A DNA stretch of 64,000 nucleotides. Origin: Escherichia coli. GTDB taxonomy: Bacteria; Pseudomonadota; Gammaproteobacteria; Enterobacterales; Enterobacteriaceae. Shown in pieces: positions 1,255-45,222 of this stretch. The DNA lies in assembly GCF_041886205.1 (NCBI RefSeq), contig NZ_CP169031.1; one strand, 5' to 3'. The notes under the pieces were generated by a model, which saw only the letters and a list, made by a program, of their open reading frames with translations, was not told the origin of the DNA and searched no databases. Position 1 is the first letter of the stretch. The number at the start of each line of letters is the position of its first letter. The translations under genes and the position numbers were made by a program.

Positions 1255-2466
1255 ATGATGATGAAACGCGATTACGGCGGTGTCGGCACCATAGCTCTTC
1301 GTGCAAGCGCATTACTTAAGGCCATGAGTCAGGATATTGAAGATCAGCGCAAAGAGTTCAATCAGACCGAGTATTATCAGACGTTCACTCGTAACGCTGT
1401 GGCAAAGTTGCCGAAGCTGAGCCGCCGCATTGTGGAGCAGGCCATCAAAGAGATGGAAGATGATGGGTACCAGTTCAACAAGAAACAGGTCGGTAACGTT
1501 GAACAGTACGCGCTGACCATCCAGAACGTCATTGATATCTATGCCCACCGTAAGATCCCCAAATATCGCGACATTCACAAATCGCCTTACGTTATTTTTG
1601 TCGTAAACCTGAAGGGTGGCGTATCCAAAACGGTTTCCACAGTCACGTTGGCGCACGCTCTGCGTGTGCATCAGGATTTACTGCGTCACGATCTGCGCAT
1701 TCTGGTAATTGACCTTGACCCTCAGGCATCCAGCACAATGTTCCTCGACCATACTCACAGTATTGGTTCCATCCTGGAAACCGCCGCGCAGGCGATGCTG
1801 AACGACCTGGACGCGGAGACGCTACGCAAAGAGGTGATTCGTCCGACCATCGTTCCTGGCGTAGACGTGATTCCAGCCTCTATCGACGATGGCTTTGTTG
1901 CCAGCCAATGGAAAGAGCTGGTTGAAGAGCATCTTCCCGGACAAAATCAGTACGAAATCCTTCGACGCAATATCATTGATCGTGTTGCGGATGATTATGA
2001 CTTTATCTTTATTGATACCGGTCCACACCTGGATCCGTTCCTGCTCAACGGTCTGGCGGCCAGCGATTTGCTGCTTACCCCTACCCCACCAGCCCAGGTT
2101 GACTTCCACTCAACACTGAAATATCTCACCCGTCTGCCAGAAATGCTGGAGCAACTGGAGGAGGAAGGCGTAGAACCGCGTTTGAGCGCCAGCATTGGTT
2201 TTATGTCGAAGATGACCGGCAAGCGCGATCACGAGACATCACACAGCCTTGCGCGTGAGGTTTACGCCAGCAACATTCTGGACTCTTCTCTGCCTCGTCT
2301 GGATGGCTTTGAGCGATGCGGCGAGTCTTTCGACACCGTAATCAGTGCCAACCCGCAATCGTATCCAGGCAGTGCAGAGGCGCTGAAGAAGGCACGAACC
2401 GAGGCCGAGCGTTTCACTAAGGCTGTGTTTGATCGAATTGAGTTTGTTAGGGGTGAGGCGGCATGA
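1255..2466 (+). CDS. parA: Partition ATPase ParA (type Ia, long N-terminus)
   Basis: 403-aa ORF with deviant Walker A (KGGVSKT); overlaps the parB start by 4 nt (atga). The true start may be one of the three leading Met codons. Confidence 0.85.
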   Translation: MMMKRDYGGVGTIALRASALLKAMSQDIEDQRKEFNQTEYYQTFTRNAVAKLPKLSRRIVEQAIKEMEDDGYQFNKKQVGNVEQYALTIQNVIDIYAHRKIPKYRDIHKSPYVIFVVNLKGGVSKTVSTVTLAHALRVHQDLLRHDLRILVIDLDPQASSTMFLDHTHSIGSILETAAQAMLNDLDAETLRKEVIRPTIVPGVDVIPASIDDGFVASQWKELVEEHLPGQNQYEILRRNIIDRVADDYDFIFIDTGPHLDPFLLNGLAASDLLLTPTPPAQVDFHSTLKYLTRLPEMLEQLEEEGVEPRLSASIGFMSKMTGKRDHETSHSLAREVYASNILDSSLPRLDGFERCGESFDTVISANPQSYPGSAEALKKARTEAERFTKAVFDRIEFVRGEAA

Positions 2467-3428
2467 AAAAAATAGTTTCCCGTGGACGAGTGCTGGGCAA
2501 GAATAGCTCCGAGTTTGCTCGCATGCTTGAAGGCAGTGAAGGCACCAAAACCTTTACCCTAAAATCTGGCCGCCAGGCTAAATTCTTGCTTACCGTCGTG
2601 CTGAGTGGTGAGATTGAGTCGCGCACGTTCGTTGACCCGGCAGTTAACGGCCGCGATCAGTCTCTGCTCACCCCTGAGTCGGTAAGCGATATTTCCCGCA
2701 CCATTAAATTGCAACAGTTCTTCCCGGCTATCGGTCGTATGGTTGGGGAGCGCATTGAGGTATTGGACGGATCGCGTCGCCGTGCTGCGTGTATCTTCAA
2801 TGAAACGAAATTTGAGATTCTGGTGACGAAAGATGAGATCAGCCTGGCGGATGCCCGCCAGCTGGCCATTGATATCCAGACAGCCCGCGAACACACTCTG
2901 CGCGAGCTGGGTAAACGCTTCGAGGTTATGTACGGTAAGAATATGACCAAAGAAGAGATCGCCCGAGCTGAGAACATCTCAAAGGCTAAAGTGACGCGAG
3001 CTTTCCAGGCTGCCGCGGTGCCGGATGAGATGATTGCTGTCTTCCCCGTAGCCAGCGATCTCGCCCTTCCAGATTACCAGTTACTGCTCCAGATCGCCGA
3101 GGATGCTAACGCTAAAAGCGTGCCGATTGAAGAGCTGGTTGATACGGTGCGCGAACGAATTGCAGAGACTGAGGGCGCGAAAGAGGATAAAGCGAAGATA
3201 CTGGCTATCTTCAAAGCGGAAAGCAAAAGCCTGAAGCCCGCGCCGGTTAAATCTGTGGTGGTTGAGAAGCTGCGAGACTTCTCTGACCGTCGCCAATATG
3301 CCCGAAAGAAGTCCGATCCGAAAAAACGGGTTGTCGCCTACGAGTTCTCCAGACTCCCGTCTGAAGTGCAAACTGAAATTGACGAAGCAATAAAAAAAAT
3401 CATTGGGAAAATGTCTGCTGGGGAATAA
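2463..3428 (+). CDS. parB: Partition centromere-binding protein ParB
   Basis: 321-aa ORF translationally coupled to parA and followed by an AT-rich centromere-like region. Confidence 0.8.
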   Translation: MKKIVSRGRVLGKNSSEFARMLEGSEGTKTFTLKSGRQAKFLLTVVLSGEIESRTFVDPAVNGRDQSLLTPESVSDISRTIKLQQFFPAIGRMVGERIEVLDGSRRRAACIFNETKFEILVTKDEISLADARQLAIDIQTAREHTLRELGKRFEVMYGKNMTKEEIARAENISKAKVTRAFQAAAVPDEMIAVFPVASDLALPDYQLLLQIAEDANAKSVPIEELVDTVRERIAETEGAKEDKAKILAIFKAESKSLKPAPVKSVVVEKLRDFSDRRQYARKKSDPKKRVVAYEFSRLPSEVQTEIDEAIKKIIGKMSAGE

Positions 3429-3673: not shown

Positions 3674-5401
3674 TTGTGTTTAAGGAAGAGTAAATTGAGT
3701 AACTTACGCGAATACCAGAATCGTATTGCAGATATCGCAAAACGCTCTAAAGCTGTGCTTGGCTGGGCAAGCACTGCGCAGTTCGGTACTGATAACCAAT
3801 TCATTAAAGATGATGCCGCGCGTGCCGCATCTATCCTTGAAGCTGCACGTAAAGACCCGGTTTTTGCGGGTATCTCTGATAATGCCACCGCTCAAATCGC
3901 TACAGCGTGGGCAAGTGCACTGGCTGACTACGCCGCAGCACATAAATCTATGCCGCGTCCGGAAATTCTGGCCTCCTGCCACCAGACGCTGGAAAACTGC
4001 CTGATTGAGTCCACCCGCAATAGCATGGATGCCACTAATAAAGCGATGCTGGAATCCGTCGCAGCAGAGATGATGAGCGTTTCTGACGGTGTTATGCGTC
4101 TGCCTTTATTCCTCGCGATGATCCTGCCTGTTCAGTTGGGGGCCGCTACCGCTGATGCGTGTACCTTCATTCCGGTTACGCGTGACCAGTCAGACATCTA
4201 TGAAGTCTTTAACGTGGCAGGTTCCTCTTTTGGTTCTTATGCTGCTGGTGATGTTCTGGACATGCAATCCGTCGGGGTGTACAGCCAGTTACGCCGCCGC
4301 TATGTGCTGGTGGCAAGCTCCGATGGCACCAGCAAAACCGCAACCTTCAAGATGGAAGACTTCGAAGGCCAGAATGTACCAATCCGAAAAGGTCGTACTA
4401 ACATCTACGTTAACCGTATTAAGTCTGTTGTTGATAACGGTTCCGGCAGCCTACTTCACTCGTTTACTAATGCTGCTGGTGAGCAAATCACTGTTACCTG
4501 CTCTCTGAACTACAACATTGGTCAGATTGCCCTGTCGTTCTCCAAAGCGCCGGATAAAGGCACTGAGATCGCAATTGAGACGGAAATCAATATTGAAGCC
4601 GCTCCTGAGCTGATCCCGCTGATCAACCACGAAATGAAGAAATACACCCTGTTCCCAAGCCAGTTCGTTATCGCGGCTGAGCACACGGTACAGGCGGCGT
4701 ATGAAGCACAGCGTGAATTTGGTCTGGACCTGGGTTCCCTACAGTTCCGCACCCTGAAGGAATACCTGTCTCATGAACAGGATATGCTGCGTCTTCGCAT
4801 CATGATCTGGCGTACTCTTGCGACCGACACCTTTGACATCGCTCTGCCGGTTAACCAGTCCTTTGATGTATGGGCAACCATCATTCGTGGCAAATTCCAG
4901 ACTGTATATCGCGACATTATTGAGCGCGTTAAATCTTCTGGTGCGATGGGGATGTTTGCTGGTGCTGATGCAGCATCTTTCTTCAAACAGTTGCCGAAGG
5001 ATTTCTTCCAGCCAGCCGAAGACTATATCCAGACTCCGTATGTTCACTACATCGGTACCCTGTTCGGTAACGTGAAAGTGTACGAAGTACCTGCTGGTAT
5101 TTGTAAGAACTTAACGACAGAGAACATTCAGTTCAGCTCGATGGATGTGCTGTGCTACGTCCGTGATGAAAATCCGGGTAAAGCAGGCTTCGTGACTGGT
5201 GATGCTGTCCCGGCTATCCCGTTCCAGCATCCGACCACTCCGGCGCTGGTCAACCGTACCACACTGTGGGGTTCGGCTATCAACGATATGCACCCACGCA
5301 ACGGCGCTGATTACTTCACTCGTGTAACGCTGACAATGGCCAAAAAAGGCGGGCTTAACTTCATTAGCGGCGACACGATTGATGCCGGTGACTCTGAGTA
5401 A
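3674..5401 (+). CDS. Putative major head protein precursor (P1 gene 23-like)
   Basis: 575-aa ORF, first gene after parS and preceded by a late-promoter-like element. The track start is TTG; an in-frame TTG at 3695 has a better RBS (aaggaag). Confidence 0.5.
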   Translation: MCLRKSKLSNLREYQNRIADIAKRSKAVLGWASTAQFGTDNQFIKDDAARAASILEAARKDPVFAGISDNATAQIATAWASALADYAAAHKSMPRPEILASCHQTLENCLIESTRNSMDATNKAMLESVAAEMMSVSDGVMRLPLFLAMILPVQLGAATADACTFIPVTRDQSDIYEVFNVAGSSFGSYAAGDVLDMQSVGVYSQLRRRYVLVASSDGTSKTATFKMEDFEGQNVPIRKGRTNIYVNRIKSVVDNGSGSLLHSFTNAAGEQITVTCSLNYNIGQIALSFSKAPDKGTEIAIETEINIEAAPELIPLINHEMKKYTLFPSQFVIAAEHTVQAAYEAQREFGLDLGSLQFRTLKEYLSHEQDMLRLRIMIWRTLATDTFDIALPVNQSFDVWATIIRGKFQTVYRDIIERVKSSGAMGMFAGADAASFFKQLPKDFFQPAEDYIQTPYVHYIGTLFGNVKVYEVPAGICKNLTTENIQFSSMDVLCYVRDENPGKAGFVTGDAVPAIPFQHPTTPALVNRTTLWGSAINDMHPRNGADYFTRVTLTMAKKGGLNFISGDTIDAGDSE

Positions 5402-13492: not shown

Positions 13493-13509
13493 AAATTTAT
13501 TAGAGCAAA
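13493..13509. promoter_or_regulatory. C1 operator-like site (aaatttattagagcaaa)
   Basis: Match to the asymmetric 17-bp P1 C1 operator consensus ATTGCTCTAATAAATTT (reverse complement), upstream of kilA-repL. Confidence 0.6.
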
Positions 13510-39024: not shown

Positions 39025-42012
39025 ATGAGCTTAAGCGATCAGGTGGTAATGGCCACCAGCATAGAAACGCTGATCGAGCTGCTAAAGAACCTGCCCGGTT
39101 ATGGGCGGGTTTCGTATGTGGTGACAGCGAAGGGAGACGAGGTAAAAACAGCGTTTGATATCGTCGATGCCTCAGCTCTTTTGGTATCCAATACTCTGGA
39201 TGGGAAAATTAATCCTGACTATCCCCAGGAACTTCAGCCGCGCGACCGGACCCGCGCATCCAGCCTTCTTCAGGTTAACCAGATATCCAAAGATTTGCGG
39301 CCTGCTCAGCTTACTGATTCCGGTTTATCCAGCCATGGTGCGCCGATAATTGGTGAGGACAATGCCGTTGAGTCAGGTAATGGACGGACCATGGGGATCA
39401 TCAAAGCCTATCAGGACGGCAATGCGGATCGGTATCGTGAGTACCTGATTGATCATGCGACCGAATTCGGCATACGACCTGAAAAGGTTGAATCAATGAC
39501 GGCTCCGGTACTGGTGCGCCGCCGGTTAACCAAGGTTGACCGCGTTCAGTTTGCCAAGGACTCAAATATTTCTGATCTTCAGGAAATGGCAGCCAGTGAA
39601 AAGGCTTTTGTTGATGCCGACAGCATAACACCGGCGATGATGGCGCTTTTTAACCCGTCAGAAAGCGGAGATCTGCTTAGCCGCAGTAATGACGCGTTTA
39701 TTCGCGGATTTATGACGCAAGTTGGTGCCACACAGGCGGCTGGCCTTGTAACTGAAGATGGGCGACCAACACGGCAACTTGTAGACCGTATACAAAACGC
39801 GATCTTTGCCAAGGCATATAAGGATGCGCGCCTGGTAAGGATGGTTGCAGAAGAACCTGATCCGGACATGCGTAATGTTCTGACGGCGCTTAATGCGGCA
39901 GCCAATGATTTTGTCCAGATGCAGGCTTTATCAGGAGAAGCGCACAAGCAGGCTGTGACAACTATTGTTGATGGCATTGAGACAGCGGATAGCCTCGATA
40001 AAAAGGCGCTGGCGGCATTGAAAGATGCGGTAGACCTGGTAAGGCAATCGAAGGAGTCAGGCCAGCATATTACCGATGTTATTGCTCAGGGGGATATGTT
40101 CAGCGAAACGGCCCCGGAAGTGAAAGCACTCGCGTTGTTCATCGTCGCGAATAACCGTAGCGCGAAGCGTATGGCCTCCGCCTTTAAGTTGATGGCTCAA
40201 CGTATCAATGATGAGTTACAGCACCAGGGCCAGGCGCTGGGGGATATGTTTGGCGGTGGTGATGTGTCGTTACAGGATATCCTTCGCCAGGTGTCTCAGG
40301 AACTGGAAAACGAAGGCATGCAAGGGATATCCGGCGGTCTTTTCGAGTCCGTTTCCGGCGGTAGTTACAATGGTGTTGCTCCATATACCAGTTTGCTATT
40401 ACATCGGGCATCCGGCATCAAAGACATTATTCATCTGATCAGGCTGCTTTCCCGTACAGATCCCCAGGATGAACAGCTTGTACAAGTGCTTGCGCATTTT
40501 GTTCGAATGCCTGTTGCCGACGTGAAAAAATGGTGCCGATTATTCGGTATCAGCAATTCGTTACTTCGCGGCTTGTTAAATCACGCATCCTCCCTTGGGC
40601 GCGATGGCTTTGACGAGATAGCGCAGGCGATAAAAAACGGAGATATGCCACCAGCTATTGACTGGTTTTCCATTCGCCCAACCAGGGTGAAAGCATTCCT
40701 TAGCGCGGCGCATTCGGCATCACCATTGGCAGAAATGGTTCAGAGGTTGTCGCTCATATTCACAGACCATACCGCGTTGGGTGATTTGACTCTGGACGAG
40801 ATGAAAGAAGCCTCCATTCAGTGGGCCGATCAACAAAATGAGGTTAACTCTGACTTCTTGCCAGCATTCAGGAAGGCCGTTAGTAAAGCTGATGATGCCC
40901 GTGGAATTCTGAGGGCATTTAAGGCATTGCAAAGTCAGGTTAATAAACATGTCGGTGATATCGATGGGGTAACGGCGGAAGGCAGGGATATCCTTAAAGA
41001 GCACGGCATAACGCCAGAGTTTATTGATGAGATCAGGACTGATATGCAGCGTGAGGTCGTATCGTCCCTGCAAATCGTAGCCAGAGCGTTGGCGGATGCT
41101 AATCCGAAGAGTGCGGCCATTGTTAACCGTGTTATTGGTGATATTGAAGCATCGGAGGGCATGGGGGCGCTGAAACTCTTCCTTTCGCGAGCGTTTAATC
41201 CTAACGGCAATATTCTCCCCGGCATTATTGGTGAGGCTAAAAAGTATGTCAGCGAAGAAGAACTTGAGCATCTTGACCAACTACTTAAGCGATTCTCATA
41301 TAACCCGCAGACACGCTGGCAAATGAATCAGCAAAGTATGGGTTCGGTCCACGAGAAAGTGTTATCTGCCATGAACAGTGCGATCGCCAACTCATCCGTA
41401 TCTGAAGAAAAAGCTCTTGAGTGGGCCGACTCTTTTATCACGGAAGAAGTGGAAGAAGCCCGCGCTGGACAGAATGGTGGGATAGACCTGCGCAAGGAAC
41501 TTGCTGATATTTATCGCCTGACCGGCGGTAAAATTTCGACCTTATCAAAGGTGGTTCACCACCAGGGAAGGGCATATGCAAATATTAATGGTGTTGTTGC
41601 TGTCAATTTGAACGATGAAAATGCAAGTGCACTGTGGCACGAGCTGGGTCATCATCTTGAGTACAGTAACCCTGGTTTGTTAGAGAAAGCCCGGTCATTC
41701 CTGAAGGCCAATGTTGAAGGGGATAAGCCATCTTTCGTTAATATCGGTGGGCGTGGCAAGCCTGAATGGTGCTTCAGATCTCGATTGAGTAATATTTATA
41801 TGGCGAAGGTATACCCGCCAGCCTCAGTAAGTAACACCGGGAAAATTCGGCAGAAATCACCGACTATTTCCAAAACGTCAGCAACGGAAGTATTCTCTAT
41901 GGCTCTTCAGTTGTATCATGACAAAGAGGCCGCTGCCGCATCACTGATGAATGGTGACGGATTGCTGGAACTGTTATTAGGTGTGGCAAAGGAGCTAAAT
42001 AATGCAGATTAA
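39025..42012 (+). CDS. ddrB: DdrB-like large protein of the dar operon
   Basis: 995-aa ORF following ddrA; assigned by position and size. Confidence 0.55.
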   Translation: MSLSDQVVMATSIETLIELLKNLPGYGRVSYVVTAKGDEVKTAFDIVDASALLVSNTLDGKINPDYPQELQPRDRTRASSLLQVNQISKDLRPAQLTDSGLSSHGAPIIGEDNAVESGNGRTMGIIKAYQDGNADRYREYLIDHATEFGIRPEKVESMTAPVLVRRRLTKVDRVQFAKDSNISDLQEMAASEKAFVDADSITPAMMALFNPSESGDLLSRSNDAFIRGFMTQVGATQAAGLVTEDGRPTRQLVDRIQNAIFAKAYKDARLVRMVAEEPDPDMRNVLTALNAAANDFVQMQALSGEAHKQAVTTIVDGIETADSLDKKALAALKDAVDLVRQSKESGQHITDVIAQGDMFSETAPEVKALALFIVANNRSAKRMASAFKLMAQRINDELQHQGQALGDMFGGGDVSLQDILRQVSQELENEGMQGISGGLFESVSGGSYNGVAPYTSLLLHRASGIKDIIHLIRLLSRTDPQDEQLVQVLAHFVRMPVADVKKWCRLFGISNSLLRGLLNHASSLGRDGFDEIAQAIKNGDMPPAIDWFSIRPTRVKAFLSAAHSASPLAEMVQRLSLIFTDHTALGDLTLDEMKEASIQWADQQNEVNSDFLPAFRKAVSKADDARGILRAFKALQSQVNKHVGDIDGVTAEGRDILKEHGITPEFIDEIRTDMQREVVSSLQIVARALADANPKSAAIVNRVIGDIEASEGMGALKLFLSRAFNPNGNILPGIIGEAKKYVSEEELEHLDQLLKRFSYNPQTRWQMNQQSMGSVHEKVLSAMNSAIANSSVSEEKALEWADSFITEEVEEARAGQNGGIDLRKELADIYRLTGGKISTLSKVVHHQGRAYANINGVVAVNLNDENASALWHELGHHLEYSNPGLLEKARSFLKANVEGDKPSFVNIGGRGKPEWCFRSRLSNIYMAKVYPPASVSNTGKIRQKSPTISKTSATEVFSMALQLYHDKEAAAASLMNGDGLLELLLGVAKELNNAD

Positions 42013-42313
42013 AATCGCAGCGCCATTAGGCGGAGATGCCATTATCGAATTTGATGATAATGAAGAAGTTTCCGGGCGTTTAAGCATTATCTCCGGTGAC
42101 ATTACCGAGGACATGATCGCTGAAGCCATAGCTGGGGCAAATCCCAATAGCTATATGGGATTCGTTAACACCCTTGATGCTCCCGCAAGTGATGTTCTCC
42201 GAACGCTGCATCTTTACGCTGGCTGGTTTGTTGATTGGCCAGCAGTAGATGGTGGCGATGAGGACGACGACGACGATGATTTTGGTGATCATGTAGACCA
42301 GATCGTATATTGA
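42002..42313 (+). CDS. Small highly acidic protein, last gene of the dar operon
   Basis: 103 aa; C-terminus DGGDEDDDDDDFGDHVDQIVY; followed by a strong terminator. Confidence 0.45.
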   Translation: MQIKIAAPLGGDAIIEFDDNEEVSGRLSIISGDITEDMIAEAIAGANPNSYMGFVNTLDAPASDVLRTLHLYAGWFVDWPAVDGGDEDDDDDDFGDHVDQIVY

Positions 42314-42316
42314 AGA

Positions 42317-42344
42317 AATCCCGCCAATCGGCGGGATTTTTTTT
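42317..42344. terminator. Bidirectional rho-independent terminator
   Basis: aatcccgcc-aatc-ggcgggatt followed by a T-run; ends the dar operon and the convergent ssb operon. Confidence 0.65.
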
Positions 42345-43125
42345 AATCGCTTTCCACTTCTTCCGTGGTGTTTTCTTGCAGTTCTGTTAATGCAGCACGA
42401 CATAGGTTCCGGGCATTGGCTATAGCCACACTTTTGACTTCATCCGTCATCGTGCAGGTAATGTACTGATCGAGTTCTTCAGCGCGGATGATGCTTTTGC
42501 CAATCAGAAACTGTATTTGCCAGAGCAGATCGGCATCCATAATCAGAATTTCTGCCGGGCCTTCAGGGCCAGCCGGGAAGGAAACATAAGACTGTTTGCC
42601 CAGGCCGACAACTCGACAACTTGCTTCAAGAATTGCGCGCTTGAGGTCTGACTTTATAACGGAAACAGGTTGATTTTCACCAGTGATTACGCCGTTGACA
42701 TGGAAAGGCATGTAGCTTGAAATACGCTCCACTTTCCACACGCCAGCAAGCGATCCTTCATGCAGCACAATGGGGGTAACCGCGAGTTTCATCTCACCAT
42801 ATAACTGCTGGCAGATAGCTGGATTGCTGAATACATCTAAAGGCTCACATTCAAACAGCGGCGCAATCTGCATGAGGTCCATCATGGTCATCCCTGGGGT
42901 ACGAGCAGTAATGAATTTGCGCATACCAGTATCCATTGCGCTCCAGATTGCTACACCATGCTTTTTGCTCACTTCTTCAGTAAAGCCAAGGTGGCACATG
43001 ATGGTTTTTTCGATAGCCAGATCAGAGATAGAAACCTTTTCGCCAGGTACTCCATCATTATTGATGGTCACTTCGACACTCTGGCCATTACGCAGGCGGT
43101 ATTGAATTGCTTTAGTATTTTCCAC
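42343..43125 (-). CDS. Hypothetical protein, third gene of the ssb operon
   Basis: 260-aa ORF, 6 bp downstream of the preceding gene. Confidence 0.45.
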   Translation of the reverse strand: MENTKAIQYRLRNGQSVEVTINNDGVPGEKVSISDLAIEKTIMCHLGFTEEVSKKHGVAIWSAMDTGMRKFITARTPGMTMMDLMQIAPLFECEPLDVFSNPAICQQLYGEMKLAVTPIVLHEGSLAGVWKVERISSYMPFHVNGVITGENQPVSVIKSDLKRAILEASCRVVGLGKQSYVSFPAGPEGPAEILIMDADLLWQIQFLIGKSIIRAEELDQYITCTMTDEVKSVAIANARNLCRAALTELQENTTEEVESD

Positions 43126-43131
43126 GTTAAA

Positions 43132-43809
43132 TCACTCCACTACAAACCAGTCACATGCCAGTAAGTCGCCTACAGAAGGAACCCACGGAACAACTACACC
43201 TTGTGCATTTTTTAAGGCGAAATAAGCACCATACGGAACGAGGTCGCCGGGGAAATATCCCTTAATGGCTTCCATTCGTGCCGGGTACTGTCCTTCAGGA
43301 ACCAGCCAGCAGAATTGGTTTTCGCCGTTCCACCCGCGTCGAGCAACTTTCTTGCCATCCTTCAGCCACATCAGCGCGTCAGAAAAGTCGGCTGCTTCAA
43401 GGTCGATTTCTTCTTGTAGAGTAGCGATACCGCCAGCAGAAATAGTTACGTCCCTGGCTGTAATGAATGTCACCCCATTGTGACCTTCAATGCTGAGCGA
43501 TACCCCATTTTCGAAGAAGTCGTTAGTCCGACTAAAGCCTTCTTCAAATGTTTTTTCTGGTGAATAGGACAGAGATCCGTCCTCATAAGCGACCAGATAT
43601 CCGCCAATTTCTGGTCGGTGTTTTTGCAAAAATATTTTATCAACATGGACTTTTACCCCTTCTGGCTCAACGACTTCGATGTTGCAAAAAAGGACCACAT
43701 CCATTAGGGCGATAATTTCGATATCTTTGATTTTTGAGGCGCGAACTGTTTTATGGCTTTTGTATTTTGGAAGTGCCGTCAAAAGCTCTTTCGTTGTCAT
43801 GTTATTCAT
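43132..43809 (-). CDS. Protein with C-terminal DUF2829/Tad2-like domain
   Basis: Likely start MNNMTTKELL at 43809 (gaggaaag RBS). C-terminal ~80 aa: FSDALMWLKDGKKVARRGWNGENQFCWLVPEG...VVPWVPSVGDLLACDWFVVE, matching the AL..LK.GKKV.R.GWNG...DW..V signature as I recall it. Confidence 0.5.
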   Translation of the reverse strand: MNNMTTKELLTALPKYKSHKTVRASKIKDIEIIALMDVVLFCNIEVVEPEGVKVHVDKIFLQKHRPEIGGYLVAYEDGSLSYSPEKTFEEGFSRTNDFFENGVSLSIEGHNGVTFITARDVTISAGGIATLQEEIDLEAADFSDALMWLKDGKKVARRGWNGENQFCWLVPEGQYPARMEAIKGYFPGDLVPYGAYFALKNAQGVVVPWVPSVGDLLACDWFVVE

Positions 43810-44006
43810 AGTCTTTCCTCTGCTTAAAACCTGATGTATTGCGCCTTCAGGTGGGTCAGGAATGTTTTCCCACCAGCGAACGCAATATCTCGGGGTGTTC
43901 TTTTCGTGAAAAGCGTGTGCCATTGCCAACTTTGGCGTTTGTTTGCGAGTTCGTGCTTTTGTCGGCGTCTGGACCACCGCTTTTCTTTCAGTCGTTTTTT
44001 ACACAT

Positions 44007-44495
44007 TCAAAACGGAATATCGTCGTCAAAGTCCATTGGAGGTTCGTTATTGGCGTTGCTCTGAGGTTTACCGCCACCACTGTATTGCTGGTGGTTTTGA
44101 GGTTGGTTTGATTGCCCCCAGCCATTTGAGGACTGTGAATCGTCACGGCGAGCGCCGATCATTTGCATGGTGCCGCCCTGGCTGACGATAATTTCCGTCG
44201 TGTAACGTTCTACACCGGCGTCATCAGTCCACTTACGGGTTTTAAGTTTCCCTTCGATGTAGACCTGAGAACCTTTTCGTAAATACTCACTCGCAATTTC
44301 AGCAAGTTTTCCGAACAAAACGACTTTATGCCATTCTGTTTGCTCTTTCTGTTGGCCCGTTTGCTTATCGCGCCATGATTCATTCGTTGCGATGCTGAGT
44401 CTTCCGACTGCGCCGCCATTTGGTATATACCTGATCTCCGGGTCTTGCCCCAGGGTACCAATCAGGATGACTTTGTTTACACCGCGTTGTGCCAC
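44007..44495 (-). CDS. ssb: Single-stranded DNA-binding protein
   Basis: 162 aa; OB-fold N-terminus, Gly/Gln-rich linker and acidic tail ending DFDDDIPF. Confidence 0.9.
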
Positions 44496-44513
44496 TTTTC
44501 TTACCTAATAAAA

Positions 44514-44530
44514 TAAATTAATTAGAGCAA
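44514..44530. promoter_or_regulatory. C1 operator-like site (aaattaattagagcaat)
   Basis: Operator consensus match immediately upstream of ssb. Confidence 0.55.
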
Positions 44531-44557
44531 TAATGTATATCTTTGAAACGTGGCTAA

Positions 44558-44577
44558 CAAGTGATTTGCATTATCCT
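44558..44577 (+). promoter_or_regulatory. Late-promoter-like element: caagtgatt, 5 nt, tatcct
   Basis: Same architecture as the 3624 element, about 90 bp upstream of lyz. Confidence 0.4.
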
Positions 44578-44664
44578 GTGCCTTCTAAAGGGATCGAGTC
44601 AGTCGGTATTGGCTGTGAATGAGTGTTTGTCCTGGAGCGTAAAAAATTCGCTTATGAGGTCTTT

Positions 44665-45222
44665 ATGAAGGGAAAAACAGCCGCAGGAGGCGGTGCAATT
44701 TGCGCTATCGCGGTGATGATTACCATCGTGATGGGTAATGGCAATGTGCGAACCAACCAGGCGGGGCTTGAGCTGATTGGTAACGCTGAAGGTTGCCGAC
44801 GTGATCCATACATGTGCCCGGCGGGGGTATGGACTGACGGGATCGGTAATACACACGGGGTAACGCCGGGTGTGCGAAAAACCGACCAGCAAATCGCCGC
44901 TGATTGGGAAAAGAATATCCTGATCGCTGAACGCTGTATTAATCAGCACTTCCGGGGCAAAGACATGCCCGATAATGCCTTCAGTGCAATGACAAGCGCG
45001 GCATTCAATATGGGATGCAATAGCTTACGGACCTACTACAGCAAAGCGCGAGGCATGCGAGTAGAAACGTCCATCCACAAGTGGGCGCAGAAAGGGGAAT
45101 GGGTGAATATGTGTAACCATCTCCCTGATTTCGTGAACAGTAACGGCGTGCCCCTGCGAGGTTTAAAGATTCGCCGTGAAAAAGAACGCCAGCTTTGCCT
45201 GACGGGGCTTGTCAATGAATAA
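44665..45222 (+). CDS. lyz: SAR endolysin (T4-lysozyme family)
   Basis: 185 aa from MKGKTAAGGGAICAIAVMITIV (Gly/Ala-rich SAR-like N-terminus) followed by a lysozyme catalytic region; gagg RBS. Confidence 0.8.
   Translation: MKGKTAAGGGAICAIAVMITIVMGNGNVRTNQAGLELIGNAEGCRRDPYMCPAGVWTDGIGNTHGVTPGVRKTDQQIAADWEKNILIAERCINQHFRGKDMPDNAFSAMTSAAFNMGCNSLRTYYSKARGMRVETSIHKWAQKGEWVNMCNHLPDFVNSNGVPLRGLKIRREKERQLCLTGLVNE

Follow-up and report, generated by a model that had tools for sequence, protein, structure and literature searches.

Organization of the ssb locus

The window examined here, that is, the whole stretch of 64,000 nucleotides of Escherichia coli DNA, is, as judged by sequence comparison, a P1-like (Punavirus) phage-plasmid; over positions 43000-44600, its identity reaches 98.9% with Salmonella phage SJ46 and 98.8% with Escherichia phage vB_EcoM-Ro157c2YLVW. 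The gene that is the subject of this analysis lies on the minus strand, directly downstream of ssb, from which it is separated by 197 nt on the same strand, and its translation (MNNMTTKELL...ACDWFVVE, followed by the stop codon) is the 225-aa protein that the first-pass annotation had placed at 43132-43809 behind ssb; coordinates, product and position relative to ssb are all correct. A protein of the same 225-aa sequence constitutes a cluster of 453 members under the name 'DUF2829 domain-containing protein', and a 100% identical copy is present in the 97 kb E. coli plasmid NZ_CP033848.1. The locus comprises the following features:

39025-42012, ddrB, by homology to P1 and relatives
42002-42313, hxr, by homology to P1 and relatives
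42343..43125, minus strand, isaA-like ORF of 260 aa, beginning 6 nt past the stop codon of the Tad2-like gene
43132..43809, minus strand, Tad2-like gene for a 225-aa two-domain protein, from the ORF and its translation, stop codon included
43135..43401, minus strand, C-terminal Tad2-like, predicted sponge domain, aa 137-225
43402..43521, minus strand, linker or possible stalk, aa 97-136, NGVSLSIEGHNGVTFITARDVTISAGGIATLQEEID, pLDDT <50
43522..43788, minus strand, N-terminal OB-fold domain, aa 8-96, of an uncharacterized, widespread phage family
43810..44006, minus strand, leader of 197 nt between ssb and the Tad2-like gene, ~98% identical to P1 (blastn)
43817..43820, minus strand, Shine-Dalgarno sequence GAGG, read from the sequence, 7 nt upstream of ATG 43809
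44007..44495, minus strand, ssb, the first gene of the presumed operon, an ORF annotated as ssb in P1, SJ46 and Ro157c2YLVW
44498..44560, minus strand, promoters P1ssb and P2ssb, placed by homology from the P1 annotation with a coordinate offset
44515..44531, minus strand, C1 repressor operator Op21/Ossb, ATTGCTCTAATTAATTT, identical to the annotated P1 operator
~48.3 kb, start of darB, by synteny with phage Ro157c2YLVW

We assign the start of the Tad2-like gene to ATG 43809 because this codon follows the Shine-Dalgarno-like purine run that closes the leader common to P1 and the window. The GTG at 43977, which opens an in-frame ORF of 281 aa, was rejected as the start; it has no comparable ribosome-binding site. 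In P1 as in the window, the 197-nt leader contains no stop codon in the reading frame of the gene that follows it.

The C1 operator-like site that had been noticed upstream of the operon is real: the 17-mer differs at a single position from the C1 operator consensus, it overlaps the promoter region upstream of the first gene, and the stretch upstream of ssb differs at two positions when aligned to P1. Operator-like matches with <=3 mismatches are strongly enriched in the window, with 8 observed (at 13493, 15165, 44515, 48365, 58176, 60214, 60297 and 60761) compared to 0.33 expected by chance. A simple consensus scan called no promoter at 44498..44560, and prediction on the gene strand yielded neither a terminator-like site nor a separate promoter from ssb to the Tad2-like gene. 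The early-operon setting behind a C1 operator, also part of the original description, holds by identity to the annotated Op21/Pr21 region of P1, and early, C1-repressed co-transcription of the Tad2-like gene with ssb through the leader is plausible. Under the control of the Op21 promoter region, the gene would be switched off in the lysogen and expressed immediately at infection or induction.

The isaA-like ORF that follows shows 93.9% nucleotide identity to the body of P1 isaA, and the adjacency of a Tad2-like and an isaA-like gene recurs in phage D6. The isaA-like protein has no Pfam, NCBIfam or PADLOC match, its sole PHROG is family 2326, of unknown function, and its homologs are few (20 at E<=1e-3, those named being from E. 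coli); the AF2 model of this protein is poor, with a mean pLDDT of 49.8. Farther away, ddrB and hxr are located on one side of the locus, and lyz, pro, prt and (by synteny) darB on the other side, in line with the earlier remark that the dar cluster is nearby.

The C-terminal Tad2 domain

The C-terminal part of the protein had been considered DUF2829/Tad2-like from the letters alone, and the HMM comparison bears this out: residues 141-224 match Pfam family PF11195 (model positions 2-73 of 73, i-E=3.6e-22, 79 bits), formerly DUF2829 and currently named 'Thoeris anti-defense 2-like'. A sequence search of the PDB retrieved ModTad2 (9EIB, 8V3E) at 6-8e-20 and, in the range of E=4e-10 to 5e-8, HgmTad2/AcrIIA7 (4e-10), SPO1 Tad2 (7e-9) and SptTad2. 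On these scores, the matches to the Tad2 family are far beyond chance. In an AF2 model built from 40 homologs, the C-terminal domain (pLDDT ~85-90) adopts the fold of the solved Tad2 structures, and comparison of the predicted model with Tad2 in fold searches of the PDB, a check that the first-pass annotation had proposed, was strongly positive.

The residues of the ADPR pocket are conserved as well. In HgmTad2, gcADPR is contacted by W21/N22/G23, W87, S90 and D93, and mutation of these contacts abolishes binding (10.1101/2023.11.15.567273). W160/N161/G162, W209, S212 and D215 of the window protein align with these residues, that is, both the W-N-G loop and the W..S..D residues near the C-terminus are present. 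Two other contacts differ: the adenine contact T92 of HgmTad2 corresponds to G214 in the window protein and to S in ModTad2, and the cyclic-dinucleotide contact R31 corresponds to V170 and likewise to V in ModTad2.

Tad2 proteins are typically, albeit not obligatorily, stand-alone proteins of ~80-105 aa, and the window protein, with its 225 aa and two domains, departs from this pattern; functional Tad2 proteins with fusions or N-terminal extensions are documented. Judged by homology, the C-terminal domain is a genuine member of the Tad2 family, with a predicted role as a sponge. It adds one member to a family that is known and annotated already: RefSeq/PGAP describes the protein as 'DUF2829 domain-containing protein', and a UniRef homolog is named 'Thoeris anti-defense Tad2 family protein'. 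The assignment to Tad2 by itself adds little, given that the gene already carries a DUF2829/Tad2-like label and that a 68%-identical homolog has been tested.

The insertion loop of the Tad2 domain (columns ~300-345 of alignment A1, aa 170-200 of the window protein) varies in length among otherwise close homologs, with one form that is ModTad2-like, one that is 8 aa longer and two that are shorter. In other Tad2 proteins, the insertion loop forms a second ligand pocket. On the alignment, the variation of the loop suggests diversifying specificity.

Tested relatives and the predicted ligand

SPO1 Tad2 is not among the nearest relatives of the domain. Together with HgmTad2/AcrIIA7 (PDB 8SME-G, 8KBI-M), it has the same fold and gcADPR pocket residues as the window protein, but the identity of these proteins to the window domain is only 33-37%, and the insertion with which HgmTad2 binds cyclic dinucleotides is longer than that of the window protein, where R31 is replaced. 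The IMG/VR metagenomic protein Tad2_68 (87 aa) is 68% identical to the window domain over 82 gapless residues and shares with it the insertion loop EYPARMEA.KG...VPY.AYFALKNAQG.VVPW.PS.GD.LA.DW; Tad2_68 is a stand-alone protein, whereas the window protein possesses an extra 136-aa N-terminal OB-fold domain plus linker. In published assays, Tad2_68 scored as active against type I Thoeris in the plaque assay and against type II Thoeris in both the liquid and the plaque assay (Table S2 in 10.1101/2025.08.24.671296), and as negative against type IV Thoeris, two CBASS and two Pycsar systems (10.1101/2025.08.24.671296). ModTad2 (also MoTad2) from a Myroides odoratus prophage, a single-domain protein (PDB 8V3E, 9EIB), is 45% identical to the window domain; it sequesters His-ADPR, the type II signal, and does not inhibit type I Thoeris (10.1101/2024.01.03.573942), and its second pocket binds cUMP/cCMP (10.1101/2025.08.24.671296).

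Because the specificities of Tad2 proteins vary widely across the family, covering Thoeris types I, II and IV, CBASS and Pycsar, homology does not reveal the exact ligand; by analogy with the tested relatives, we infer that 3'cADPR (the type I signal) and/or His-ADPR (the type II signal) are the most likely candidates. That the DUF2829 domain would instead have an AcrIIA7-like anti-CRISPR function, or a non-immune nucleotide-binding role, appears highly improbable. AcrIIA7/HgmTad2 does belong to the same family (E=4e-10), was originally described as a Cas9 inhibitor and also binds c-di-GMP, but an attempt to reproduce its Acr activity failed, its c-di-GMP/CDN contact R31 is V170 in the window protein, as in ModTad2, and Tad2_68, the closest tested homolog, does not inhibit CBASS. 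Furthermore, to our knowledge, type II CRISPR-Cas is untypical of E. coli.

By analogy with the characterized members of the family, we consider it probable that the gene encodes an early-expressed anti-defense protein of a P1-like phage-plasmid that acts through its Tad2 sponge domain. Under this scenario, the Tad2 domain (aa 137-225) would assemble as a homotetramer, as the solved Tad2 proteins do, and the pockets between the protomers would bind and sequester ADP-ribose-derived alarm molecules from Thoeris TIR proteins; with the signal sequestered, the Thoeris effector would never be activated, and the phage would replicate. The N-terminal OB-fold domain (aa 8-96) would be an independent module attached by a flexible or stalk-like linker.

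The N-terminal OB-fold domain

The N-terminal ~145 aa, which the first-pass annotation left unassigned, can be assigned for the most part. The AF2 model is beta-rich at aa 5-96, with a pLDDT of ~90, and a profile of 24 N-termini compared with the PDB gave a single significant entry, the decoration protein Dec of phage L (6E3C; E=4.5e-7), in an alignment that pairs profile positions 12-124 with Dec residues 14-127. A Foldseek search with the predicted model also returned Dec (E=5.4e-4, 140 columns); the N-terminus has a Dec-type OB fold. The model and the profile match together indicate that aa 8-96 are an OB-fold domain that is distantly related to Dec and belongs to a large phage family. The linker (aa 97-136) is modeled with low confidence, and the corresponding segment is helical, absent or replaced in other homologs.

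The N-domain family is very widespread: among 1.84 billion proteins, the profile search yielded 5124 cluster representatives at E<=1e-3, of which 2818 reach E<=1e-10, counts that are somewhat inflated since the profile included the linker and drew in spurious repeat proteins. Most members are stand-alone proteins of 83-160 aa with the signature LP.Y.CHK.V.A.KI ... KH.P..GGY.V.YEDGY.SYSP..FE.GY. Against an HMM derived solely from stand-alone members, the window protein reaches 96 bits, and it retains most of the near-invariant residues, the exceptions being the replacement of Y by S79 and of Y by F92. Pfam scans of the window protein and 33 stand-alone N-domain proteins left the N-domain without a family, and searches of NCBIfam and PADLOC with the window protein or with its first 96 aa were negative. 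The PHROGs returned are 'unknown function' families only (872, 1048, 11049, 30130, 9467 and 2326, the last being that of the isaA-like protein), and the N-domain family has no other description there. The contig surroundings of two stand-alone members held no informative neighbors.

Eight giant proteins (P0121-P0124, P0130, P0155, P0176 and P0190; 1781-4559 aa) that are among the highest-ranking results of the N-domain profile search were rejected as artefacts. These proteins contain cadherin/VCBS-like repeats (GTLVFN.DGTFTYTPNADFNGTDGFTY) and rank high because many weak matches, of 8-11 bits each, to the GGYL..DG.LSYSP..F motif sum up; none of them matches the HMM built from stand-alone members.

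Domain architectures and possible functions of the N-domain

Scanning of 144 N-domain representatives with local HMMs showed that the domain is stand-alone in 103 and is otherwise joined to Sequestin (PF21825) in 15, to Tad2 in 9, and to both Tad2 and Sequestin in 3, e.g. P0128, in which Pfam confirms the arrangement; the totals are 12/144 for fusions with Tad2, including the 3 that also contain Sequestin, and 18/144 for fusions with Sequestin/PF21825. Tandem copies account for another 6 representatives and the spurious giant repeat proteins for 8. In crAssphage gp41, the Acb4/PF13876 domain is preceded by a partial copy that matches the C-terminal half of the model with 35 bits, and the N-domain is also found in a PHROG of MazG-like pyrophosphatases and in a MazG protein of a Vibrio phage. 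In phages SopranoGao and Dewey, the N-domain gene is located among early or regulatory genes, and in Ralstonia phage GP4, the homolog maps between the portal gene and that of the major head protein, beside a CsrA-like gene.

Fusions in which a sponge is linked to a second small domain, as in the window protein, are known, namely Acb4-Tad2 of phage Pm86, Tad2-Sequestin, and Acb4-Sequestin of phage Ab09; in the window protein, the partner is an OB-fold domain without a Pfam family and is neither Acb4 nor Sequestin. The Acb4-Tad2 fusion of Pm86 is functional, and Sequestin was itself discovered via Pfam families fused to Tad2 or Acb4 (Tal et al., 10.1101/2025.07.12.664507). That guilt-by-fusion search would miss the N-domain because the N-domain has no Pfam entry. 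As of 2026, the known families of sponges are Tad1, Tad2, Acb2, Acb4, Sequestin, Lockin and TadIV-1, none of which has an OB fold. The N-domain falls into none of the proven families that a partner could represent (PF13876, PF21825, Tad1, Acb2, Lockin, TadIV-1), and neither of the two PDB fold searches returned a sponge-family structure other than Tad2. Identification of the N-domain with Lockin, a beta-rich hexameric cog, or with TadIV-1, which is helical, was rejected. The new aspect of the protein is its architecture, the combination of Tad2 with an uncharacterized, very widespread OB-fold partner.

Two readings of this partner have to be weighed against each other, and we put each of them forward with reserve. 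The N-domain might be a second signal sponge or another immune antagonist, such that one polypeptide would block two signals in the manner of Acb4-Tad2 and Acb4-Sequestin; we hold this to be possible, albeit rather unlikely on present evidence. It is consistent with the small size of the domain (~85 aa) and its mostly stand-alone occurrence, with the strong conservation of polar and aromatic residues (Y, H, K, H, D, Y, S, E) that the window protein mostly retains, with its placement among early or regulatory genes in SopranoGao and Dewey, and with its presence in MazG-like pyrophosphatase proteins. The guilt-by-fusion logic that led to Sequestin applies here to both Tad2 and Sequestin, and, with Acb4 behind the partial copy, all three partners are proven sponges. 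Against this stand the absence of the OB fold from the known sponges, the closest solved relative being a capsid decoration protein, and the substitutions of the window copy at two near-invariant positions (S79 and F92); moreover, the fusion partners are equally compatible with a scaffolding or solubility role.

The profile match to Dec can also be taken at face value, in which case the N-terminal part would be a Dec-like module, an OB-fold foot with a trimeric spike, and the protein would display Tad2 on the virion surface. The alignment of the N-termini does extend, with the linker, into the C-terminal spike region of Dec, the linker has no order when modeled as a monomer (pLDDT <50), like the Dec spike in the monomer, the annotation of a family member from Pseudomonas phage Jeremy reads 'capsid decoration protein', and the GP4 homolog is encoded between the portal and the major head protein. 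But Dec (PDB 6E3C) is a late structural protein that forms trimers on capsids, whereas the window gene is an early one, located in the C1-controlled ssb operon between ssb and isaA and not in a late structural operon, and its product continues into a Tad2 domain; a sponge on the capsid exterior would not enter the cell or reach the cytoplasm. The linker is not conserved among the homologs, Dec lacks the conserved H/K/H/D/S residues of the family, the majority of the family consists of stand-alone proteins of 85 aa that have no spike, and the trimeric spike is mismatched to the tetrameric Tad2: a linker that trimerized as the Dec spike does would conflict with the tetrameric symmetry of Tad2. 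Thus, a capsid decoration role is very unlikely, and less likely than an anti-defense or sponge module. Carried to its consequence, the anti-defense interpretation would make the N-domain the founder of a large, undescribed family of phage anti-defense modules, perhaps a new class of sponges, with Dec as a divergent structural offshoot, a proposal that we advance only tentatively. If it is true, the window protein is a two-headed inhibitor. The N-domain can be put to the test as a specific candidate for a novel anti-defense family.

An accessory gene slot next to ssb

Alignment with P1 by blastn defines the Tad2-like gene as a discrete cassette. Window positions 43806-44700 correspond to P1 ssb and the leader, positions 42343-43121 correspond to the body of P1 isaA, and the ~684 bp between these matching stretches are absent from P1. 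Comparison of the junctions (window 43095-43160 and 43780-43840; P1 locus 4090-4160) shows that, in P1, the leader and its ATG run directly into the isaA body (...TTTAAGCAGAGAAAAGACT-ATG-ACAGCACAAAATACTAAA..., MTAQNTK...), whereas in the window, the same leader and ATG are followed by the Tad2-like ORF and then by TGATTTAAC-GTG-GAAAATACTAAA (VENTK...). The purine-rich, Shine-Dalgarno-like run at the end of the leader is AGAGAAAAG in P1 and GAGGAAAG in the window. At the sequence level, the difference between P1 and the window is a clean gene-sized insertion or deletion. The annotated 320-aa IsaA of P1, which begins at an upstream GTG, is probably over-extended because the shared leader ends in a Shine-Dalgarno-like run and an ATG that opens the isaA body.

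The Tad2-like gene is absent from both P1 and P7. The P1 isaA locus (Lobocka et al. annotation, NC_005856) has ssb, Op21, the leader and the isaA body in common with the window but, in place of a Tad2-like gene, continues after isaA with IS1 and isaB (1737-3243), and in P7, the slot is occupied by the nmpC porin gene (2152-3267). In phage D6 (4005-4499), a dUTPase gene next to a gene for a 146-aa DUF2829 protein, together with an isaA-like gene, is located elsewhere in the genome. From these comparisons, the slot between ssb and hxr/odaA is an accessory-gene hotspot, with different content in each P1-like phage examined; it resembles the anti-signaling hotspot of N4-like phages, which adjoins the phage SSB gene.

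In a sample of 5426 complete E. coli genomes, a P1-like portal gene is present in 488, the isaA-like gene in 377 and the Tad2-like gene in 212, with 178 of the latter being full length; 212 of the 219 places in which the Tad2-like gene occurs are on plasmids. The Tad2-like gene is an accessory cassette, carried by ~40% of the P1-like phage-plasmids in complete E. coli genomes and missing from laboratory P1, which, lacking the gene, is a ready isogenic background for a knock-in. As a predicted sponge gene, it would help explain the differing sensitivity of P1-like elements to signaling defenses.

The Tad2 domain also occurs in other combinations. One protein (P0056) is a dUTPase fused to a Tad2 domain almost the same as that of the window protein (98% identity where the two align), and a 191-aa Tad2-Sequestin protein (P0061-P0064) contains a related Tad2 domain that is ~85% identical; the contigs encoding these proteins are ~88-94 kb long, a P1-like size. 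In P0023, a variant of 306 aa encoded on a 10-kb contig, a phage tail-fiber repeat region (PF03406) is joined to the window-type protein, which is present from about residue 24 onward; this variant could be a recombinant or an assembly chimera.
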